This document shows positions 22,002 through 22,657 of a stretch of 64,000 nt of DNA, piece by piece; position 1 is the first letter of the stretch, and each line of letters begins with the position of its first letter. A model generated the notes under the pieces. It was given only the letters and a program-made list of their open reading frames with translations. It searched no databases and was not told the origin of the DNA. A program made the position numbers and the translations under genes. The stretch lies in sequence record PQ471515.1. The stretch is one strand, 5' to 3'. The stretch is from Escherichia phage Turkey3.

Positions 22002-22211
22002 ATGTTCTATACAGTATATAGCGTTCTAGGCACTATTGCAGGCGTACATGATAACGTCGATAGTGCTATGCGTACAGTACTGCAACAGGTTCCACTAAAG
22101 CCTAAGACCATTAAGCAGATGACAGCACGACTAACCAGGGCGACGGCTGGCGTGGAAGTATGGCAGGACTATGGGGATACACAGATAATCGTAAGCGTAA
22201 CGAAGGATTAA
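22002..22211 (+). CDS. hypothetical protein
   Basis: RBS CAGGAGGG. Confidence 0.55.
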   Translation: MFYTVYSVLGTIAGVHDNVDSAMRTVLQQVPLKPKTIKQMTARLTRATAGVEVWQDYGDTQIIVSVTKD

Positions 22212-22403
22212 TGCGTAAAAGGATTTAGTACTGAATCATAAAAAAGTCAAGGCATTTTTAAACTTCAGCGTTAAAAAAATGCATAGGTAATCCCTTGACT
22301 TTTATGAATAAAAAGGGATTGGACTATGGCAAAATGCGTAGGGGGCTAAAGGGCGGGTAACCTTAGCGACTTCGATAAAGGGGTATTACTTATAAAATGT
22401 TAT

Positions 22404-22430
22404 TGACTTTTATATGAATCGTATATTATT
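22404..22430 (+). promoter_or_regulatory. possible promoter at head of family-A array
   Basis: TTGACT at 22404 with TATATT/TATTAT downstream (spacing suboptimal); preceded by 11-bp inverted repeat AAAAGTCAAGG...CCTTGACTTTT. Confidence 0.3.
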
Positions 22431-22459
22431 GGATTGATATTATTTTTAATGGAGTCCCT

Positions 22460-22657
22460 ATGCGTATTTTAACTCAAGAAGAGCACAACCACACACTCAT
22501 ATCCAACATGGCATATATTCTACATATGTCACATATCCGTGGTATGGCATATAAGCGTGAATTGGTTATGAAACTTTTCATAGGAACTAACTATCAAGAA
22601 AAGTATATCGAACTATACTTACAAGAATTACGAAGGGACATAAAAGGAAGACGATGA
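22460..22657 (+). CDS. family A small protein (GTNYQE motif)
   Basis: RBS GGAG; ...FIGTNYQEKYIELYLQEL. Confidence 0.6.
   Translation: MRILTQEEHNHTLISNMAYILHMSHIRGMAYKRELVMKLFIGTNYQEKYIELYLQELRRDIKGRR

Follow-up and report, generated by a model that had tools for sequence, protein, structure and literature searches.

The junction between positions 22211 and 22460 of the window, by which we mean the whole stretch of 64,000 nt of Escherichia phage Turkey3 (PQ471515.1) that was analysed, is very probably the right end of a direct terminal repeat (DTR) of about 21 kb, where a DTR with the layout of an early module meets arrays of overlapping genes. The spacer between these two coordinates holds the right physical end of the virion chromosome, which the earlier note on this DNA had missed. 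At this position we observed a conserved cut-site core and a G+C change-point within 20 nt of it, with a battery of promoters on the DTR side and, on the other side, overlapping gene arrays behind a conserved head promoter. The coordinates of all features are given in Table 1.

Chromosome ends and anatomy of the junction

Megablast of positions 20000-26000 returned 41 matching phage records at 85-97% identity, all of them jumbo coliphages or Salmonella phages of the 121Q/PBECO4 group (Asteriusvirus) of 326-386 kb, with EC.P1 as the top match (96.9%). The junction itself (22000-22660) shares 98-99% identity with Ecwhy_1, EC.P1 and fEgEco12, and the comparison of TH47 with the whole window gave 86-96% identity with 81-100% aligned. 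Judged by its identity to genomes of the genus (86-99%) and by synteny, the window belongs to Asteriusvirus.

The linear record of vB_Ec-M-J (378,573 bp) carries the annotation "Direct Terminal Repeats" at 1..21525, and the end of this repeat falls between the homologues of the window genes at 22002-22211 and 22460-22657. Its two DTR copies are identical (21,525 bp, 0 mismatches), starting with AGTAGGCAGAGGAAGTCTGCC and ending in ...GGGCGGGTAACCT, and the two copies of fEgEco12 are identical as well (20,993 bp, 0 mismatches) and have the same two ends. Both records start at AGTAGGCAGAGG..., which corresponds to position 1,395 of the window, and the homology of vB_Ec-M-J to the window stops precisely at this base. 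Six linear records (vB_Ec-M-J, fEgEco12, G17, E9.1, CRJP21 and WPEC5) end at ...GGGCGGGTAACCT, that is, at window position 22363, and the last four of these start or stop exactly at ...GGGTAACCT. This shared right end lies 152 nt past the stop codon of the last DTR gene and 20 nt from the G+C change-point. The ELP-22 record ends 24 nt, not 152 nt, past the same gene, which we took as another trimming convention and not as a different terminus.

Termini within the genus have been determined by PhageTerm and restriction digests for fEgEco12 (PMC13070987), by read coverage for G17, with a repeat of ~20 kb (PMC6563267), and by PhageTerm for Sharanji, with a repeat of 20,668 bp (PMC11895373). A DTR of 8.3 kb has been reported for UE-S1, an assignment doubted by the fEgEco12 authors (PMC13070987), and the orientation of some GenBank records may derive from homology and not from independent end mapping. 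For Turkey3 we infer the ends at 1395 and 22363 by homology, the last 110 nt being 100% identical to fEgEco12. Read in the same way, the window has a concatemer-junction arrangement, in which the right unique end (1-1394) is followed by the DTR (1395-22363) and by the start of the left unique region (22364 onward).

An alignment of nine phages showed how conservation is distributed along the spacer. The terminus core, which occurs once in the window, is invariant in all nine aligned phages while its flanks are variable, so that the conserved cut-site sequence expected of fixed-end DTR phages is present (GGGTAACC/TTAGC; the slash marks the cut here and below). The core GGAT(T/C)TAGTACTGA at 22221-22237 is likewise kept in 9/9 phages, and between this box and AGGGATTGGACTATG lies a variable stretch containing the inverted repeat discussed below. 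The blocks AGGGATTGGACTATG and ATGCGTRGGGGG are invariant or nearly so in the nine phages, with sequence varying on both sides of them, and constitute a candidate terminase-recognition sequence. At the opposite end of the repeat, a hairpin GGCAG-N7-CTGCC with a T-run is located just inside the left terminus. A terminator was not found anywhere in 22211-22460.

The possible promoter that the earlier note had placed at the junction is present, 40 nt past the terminus and in single-copy DNA, at the head of the arrays. Its -35 box and the T-run that follows are kept in 8/9 phages, being deleted in SD-15_S21, and GGGTAACCTTAGC is conserved across the nine phages. The T-run of the window is one T shorter, which leaves a suboptimal spacer of 15 nt vs 16 nt in the relatives; this may be either a real promoter down-mutation or a homopolymer sequencing error.

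Two of the relatives are rearranged in this neighbourhood. PBECO4 carries an extra gene of 366 nt, with its own promoter, inserted just past the terminus, and in the Salmonella phage SD-15_S21, which has lost the head promoter, the first array gene begins ~25 nt past the terminus. Both events lie on the unique side of the cut, which is thus a rearrangement hotspot.

Table 1. Features of the window around and within the terminal repeat (positions in the window; a slash within a sequence marks the cut)
Feature	Position	Strand	Details
Tandem array of ~62-aa paralogs	93..1091	+	End of right-hand unique region; G+C 0.33
Left terminus, CCCACTA/AGTAGGCAGAGGAAGTCTGCC	1375..1415		Cut 1394/1395; from record starts
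Collapsed single DTR copy	1395..22363	+	20,969 bp; G+C 0.384; bounds mapped from vB_Ec-M-J and fEgEco12
Non-coding DTR leader	1395..3061		~1.7 kb; many TTCAGTACTGAA palindromes
Near-consensus sigma-70 promoters	3036..21056	+	~35; each drives 1-2 small genes
Hairpin-plus-promoter units AAAGGGATTGACTCCGGTCAGTCCCTTT	15337-15364, 18615-18644, 20879-20906 (also 11679-11706)		
DksA/TraR zinc finger	13675-13932	+	Pfam
GNAT acetyltransferase	13996-14352	+	Pfam
Weak kinase-like match	18020-18604	+	Below Pfam threshold
Last DTR gene	22002..22211	+	69 aa; phrog_17833, unknown function; = EcMJ_053 (vB_Ec-M-J), g056/g670 (fEgEco12)
GGATTTAGTACTGAATC, copy of the genome-wide AGTACT palindrome	22221..22237		Nine-phage alignment
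Inverted repeat	22242..22303		AAAAGTCAAGG 22242-22252; CCTTGACTTTT 22293-22303
Conserved blocks AGGGATTGGACTATG and ATGCGTRGGGGG	22314..22345		AGGGATTGGACTATG at 22314-22328; DTR side of terminus
Terminus core GGGTAACCT/TAGC (also GGGTAACC/TTAGC)	22355..22367		Right end after base 22363
Head promoter of arrays	22403..22429	+	TTGACT 22403-22408, 15-nt spacer, TATTAT 22424-22429; alignment
Ribosome-binding site and start of first array gene	22451..22462	+	GGAG 22451-22454; ATG 22460
Array 1, 28 consecutive overlapping paralogs	22460..28606	+	65-93 aa; phrog_4148, unknown function; G+C 0.336
Further arrays, families of 10, 7, 3 and 2 members	28596..58797	+	phrog_9317, 12674, 36809, 30978

Composition and gene organisation on the two sides of the terminus

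The G+C content is 0.384 at 1395-22363, 0.326 at 22364-64000 and 0.329 at 1-1394. Fitting one change-point to the full 64 kb by maximum likelihood placed it at 22383 (log-likelihood ratio 95), and recursive segmentation of the window yielded no second G+C break. In 2-kb sliding windows, G+C ranges from 0.36 to 0.42 across 2-22 kb and from 0.29 to 0.34 beyond 24 kb. The difference extends to all codon positions (upstream vs downstream, GC1.486 vs ~.40, GC2.340 vs ~.265 and GC3.378 vs ~.30) and to amino-acid usage, the upstream genes being richer in Ala, Gly, Val, Arg and Thr and the downstream genes in Leu, Phe, Tyr and Ile; per-gene G+C on the two sides also differs (Mann-Whitney p = 1e-16).

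The organisation of the genes changes at the same place. Upstream, neighbouring genes are separated by a median of 82 nt, with only 5 of 54 gaps at <=10 nt, whereas between 22364 and 58797 they typically overlap in the ATGA manner (median gap -4 nt) and gaps of <=10 nt make up 82 of 98. A strict sigma-70 pattern, defined as TTGACA, TTGCAA or TTGACT followed by N16/17 and a TATAAT-like box, was found 36 times upstream on the + strand, 3 times upstream on the - strand and once in the 36 kb of arrays; at 28596-58797, sigma-70-like promoters are located only at the block heads 29502, 35073, 40190, 47141 and 51022. Spacing and promoter density both switch inside one intergenic region. The earlier note had described a step in composition, together with individually promoted genes upstream and coupled, promoter-poor genes downstream; the step withstood both the sliding-window and the codon-position analysis, and the contrast in organisation is borne out by the counts of promoters (36 vs 1) and the median gaps.

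As an independent check we used 350 kb of TH47, whose DTR equivalent spans 244032-262540 in the orientation of the window. When 5-kb arms are used, only one G+C step in the genome exceeds that at the right terminus; with 10-kb arms, the largest step of the genome lies ~2.7 kb past the right terminus (265,213), and with 3-kb arms a top-four step lies ~270 bp from the left terminus. The TH47 DTR has a G+C of 0.375-0.393, and other G+C-rich parts also exist in this genome; the arrays just past the DTR, with 0.304-0.32, are its most AT-rich part. In fEgEco12, G+C is 0.385 within the DTR vs 0.334-0.337 in the 6-kb flanks on both sides.

The G+C-richer DTR is flanked on both sides by AT-rich paralog arrays. 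Five further members of the Array 1 family lie downstream of the 28 consecutive ones, and a profile HMM of the ~62-aa family recovers all 5 ORFs of the window together with more than 20 fEgEco12 ORFs upstream of the right DTR copy (L005:1100-5705). The families to the left and to the right of the DTR are distinct, as their HMMs do not cross-hit. Array proteins showed no Pfam domains, and in PHROGs they matched only families of unknown function. Paralog arrays on both flanks of the DTR bring to mind large eukaryotic DNA viruses, in which gene families have expanded close to the genome ends.

Word biases, the inverted repeat and rival readings of the step

The hexamer AGTACT (the ScaI palindrome, often found as TTCAGTACTGAA) is the commonest of the window, with 264 copies vs 21 expected from base composition, and CAGTACTG occurs 62 times vs 0.87 expected from dinucleotide shuffles. 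Copies of AGTACT lie in every reading frame as well as between genes, and the density of the hexamer in the genome is ~2.6 per kb, 12 times the expectation. It is densest at 1-22100, drops abruptly at the end of the DTR and is nearly absent at 22100-38000; the sole CAGTACTG between 22075 and 39436 is located at 29391. The 350 kb of TH47 contain 909 AGTACT, 2-3 times denser in the DTR. At many DTR promoters, AGTACT sites ~20 nt apart flank the -35 box (AGTACTTGCAA ... AGTACTGTATAAT). A second bias concerns GCGC, which occurs 0 times in the window (43.5 +/- 6.3 expected) and 0 times in the 350 kb of TH47, and this absence points to strong counter-selection, for instance against a restriction system of the HhaI type.

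The consensus bound by SlmA is GTGAGTACTCAC (PMC3020112). The AGTACT sites match it in the central six bases, but they have a C at position 3, where SlmA tolerates purines alone, and mostly do not have the G that it needs at position 1, and GAGTACTC occurs 0 times; we rejected them as sites for E. coli SlmA and keep the likeness as a lead only. A literature search on AGTACT in jumbo phages found no paper. It is conceivable, and we put it forward tentatively, that the boundary separates two regimes defined by (C)AGTACT(G) and not by G+C alone, the motif being the operator of an uncharacterised DNA-binding protein, of phage or host, that would switch the early promoters on or off and mark most of the genome except for the arrays. 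If this were true, (C)AGTACT(G) and the absence of GCGC would represent a hitherto undescribed sequence code spanning the genomes of these jumbo phages. Both biases are worth an experiment.

The 11-bp inverted repeat that the earlier note had pointed out does exist, and with 93% complementarity it can be lengthened to 15 nt. Both arms are copies of the box TTGACTTTT(T)AT..GAAT, one inverted and the other direct; this box occurs inverted from 22250 to 22233, directly at 22295 and again directly at 22403, where it forms the -35 box of the head promoter; neither the copy at 22250-22233 nor that at 22295 has a usable -10. In our view the inverted repeat consists of duplicated promoter remnants (-35-like boxes) and is neither a terminator nor a packaging site. 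It is unlikely to be the functional element of the junction, be it a terminator or insulator closing the promoter-rich block or a site of terminase binding. This role would agree with its position 60-120 nt ahead of the terminus, with its identity in most relatives and with the low chance of finding a perfect 11-nt inverted repeat in a given 250 bp (~3 expected per 64 kb; the window holds 10 distinct perfect ones of that size vs ~2.8 in Markov simulations). However, Turkey5 and JNE01 carry unrelated sequence in its place and still have the promoter as well as the terminus core, we saw no compensatory changes in it, and the arms are copies of the very TTGACTTTTAT box that forms the downstream -35. 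As an intrinsic terminator it falls short, with an AT-rich stem, a loop of 32-40 nt, no proper T-tail and a silent terminator scan, and the minimum-free-energy structure of the region favours another hairpin. The RNA fold of 22205-22375 (z-score -1.46) and the DNA fold of 22300-22430 (z-score -0.18) are no stabler than shuffles, and therefore no structural claim is made for the inverted repeat or the terminus.

Two further readings concern the step as a whole. That there is no discrete boundary, the change being a gradual gradient or the product of a chimeric assembly, is scarcely credible: the best change-point does shift to 25024 when only local data (10-35 kb) are used, and G+C drifts further down, to ~0.30 by 27-32 kb, but the whole-window change-point lies at 22383 (log-likelihood ratio 95), spacing and promoter density switch with it in a single intergenic region, and the same contiguous arrangement recurs in many independent assemblies, so that this reading is largely refuted. 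The second takes the arrays past 22.4 kb as foreign or separately evolved DNA and the step as the scar of their acquisition, along the lines of the distinct evolutionary origin that the earlier note had considered. The arrays do differ in G+C at each codon position, and likewise in the amino acids used, AGTACT, the signature palindrome of the genome, is almost absent from 22-38 kb, and the array region of TH47 is the most AT-rich stretch of that genome. [quoted passage not shown] An acquisition scar is thus very improbable and a foreign origin of the arrays unlikely, and the proposal of a distinct origin was not supported. The alternative offered with it, a distinct expression regime for the arrays, is consistent with the sequence, in which a promoter for each gene gives way to overlapping genes.

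The step would divide modules of different expression logic and protein make-up, not native from foreign DNA. The preferred explanation, the right end of the DTR, locates the step, and it does not fully account for the G+C difference at all three codon positions; protein make-up together with evolutionary dynamics, namely those of the tandem-duplicating arrays, is a plausible source of this difference.

Layout of the terminal repeat and comparison with known systems

The 21-kb DTR contains ~55 small ORFs, all on the + strand. Its promoters are very uniform, consisting of an A-rich tract, AGTACTTGCAA or TTGACA, a 16-nt spacer, TATAAT and TTTACATCAAGG, and the spacer often ends in AGTACTG ahead of TATAAT. 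In the AAAGGGATTGACTCCGGTCAGTCCCTTT units the stem includes TTGACT as a -35 box, and TATTAT follows; these units look like a combined terminator and promoter separating the gene cassettes of the DTR. The leader harbors a perfect TTGACA-N16-TATAAT promoter (1759-1786) with no ORF for ~700 nt behind it, a hairpin with a 14-bp stem formed by two CAGTACTG copies (1916-1949) and iteron-like GACGGCTAAACGGCTAGAT repeats at ~2150-2290. It may act as a replication origin or as a packaging signal, or encode a non-coding RNA. A scan of the whole window against Rfam, leader included, gave no match, and a whole-window scan for tRNAs found no tRNA genes.

With 36 near-consensus promoters and 55 ORFs, the terminal repeat has the layout of a pre-early or host-takeover region, and by analogy its genes are probably early or host-takeover genes. 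We propose that at packaging the terminase would cut near CCCACTA/AGTAGG and GGGTAACCT/TAGC, with duplication of the DTR, and that after injection the sigma-70 RNA polymerase of the host would fire the ~36 strong DTR promoters. Present at two copies per genome, the DTR would provide a double dose of small early or host-takeover proteins, expressed as separate units, and the proposed early products would include the DksA/TraR zinc-finger protein, the GNAT acetyltransferase and the weakly kinase-like protein. Transcription of the arrays would yield long polycistronic RNAs, started at the 22403-22429 promoter and also produced by read-through. Our literature search turned up no Asteriusvirus transcriptome, and for that reason we infer early timing, promoter use and read-through alike; the pre-early DNA of T5 and the repeats of the SPO1 type suggest by analogy that the DTR may act as an immediate-early host-takeover module.

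The step has an ordinary explanation, the edge of a terminal repeat already mapped in sister phages, and the window should not be taken for a mosaic of native and foreign DNA. The DTR of the genus and its exact ends are already contained in GenBank records and papers, and the window adds nothing new in kind. In the Asteriusvirus DTR literature that was searched, we found no mention of the promoter battery, the composition step or the spacing switch at the boundary; judging from T5 and SPO1, a terminus that coincides with a switch in composition, spacing and promoters would be expected. In Asteriusvirus, the G+C change-point, gene spacing and promoter density place the genome ends within tens of bases from sequence alone, and end-finding of this sort could help to re-orient the many records of the genus that have arbitrary starts. 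The 21-kb repeat is also a place to seek host-takeover genes and very strong E. coli promoters.

Compared with the DTRs of other Asteriusvirus members (fEgEco12, 20,993 bp; vB_Ec-M-J, 21,525 bp; Sharanji, 20,668 bp; G17, ~20 kb), the one described here has the same sequence, end bases and flanking genes; nothing essential differs, and the window shows the repeat once, in its collapsed or concatemer-junction form. Phage T5 also has a long, exact DTR with fixed ends, in which small pre-early genes lie behind very strong sigma-70 promoters pointing inward (the first-step-transfer DNA). The DTR of the window resembles it in being long and exact and in carrying small genes with strong, inward-pointing sigma-70 promoters, and differs in size, with 21 kb vs 10 kb in T5. 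To our knowledge, two-step DNA transfer has not been described for the Asteriusvirus group, and we know of no paralog arrays flanking the repeat of T5. Comparison of 20 proteins of the window, 12 of which are encoded in the DTR, with Pfam, and of 10 of the 20 with PHROGs as well, gave no names corresponding to T5 A1/A2/dmp or SPO1 gp37-60.

[quoted passage not shown] They share with the window a terminal repeat packed with many short genes, and differ in belonging to an unrelated lineage with Gram-positive hosts and no sequence similarity. In the Rak2-like phage vB_PcaM_CBB, a terminal repeat of 22,456 bp has been predicted from two-fold coverage, and RpoD-like promoters with UP-like elements concentrate among short hypothetical genes (PMC5259590). 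This phage comes from a related jumbo-phage group, and its DTR is of similar size to that of the window.
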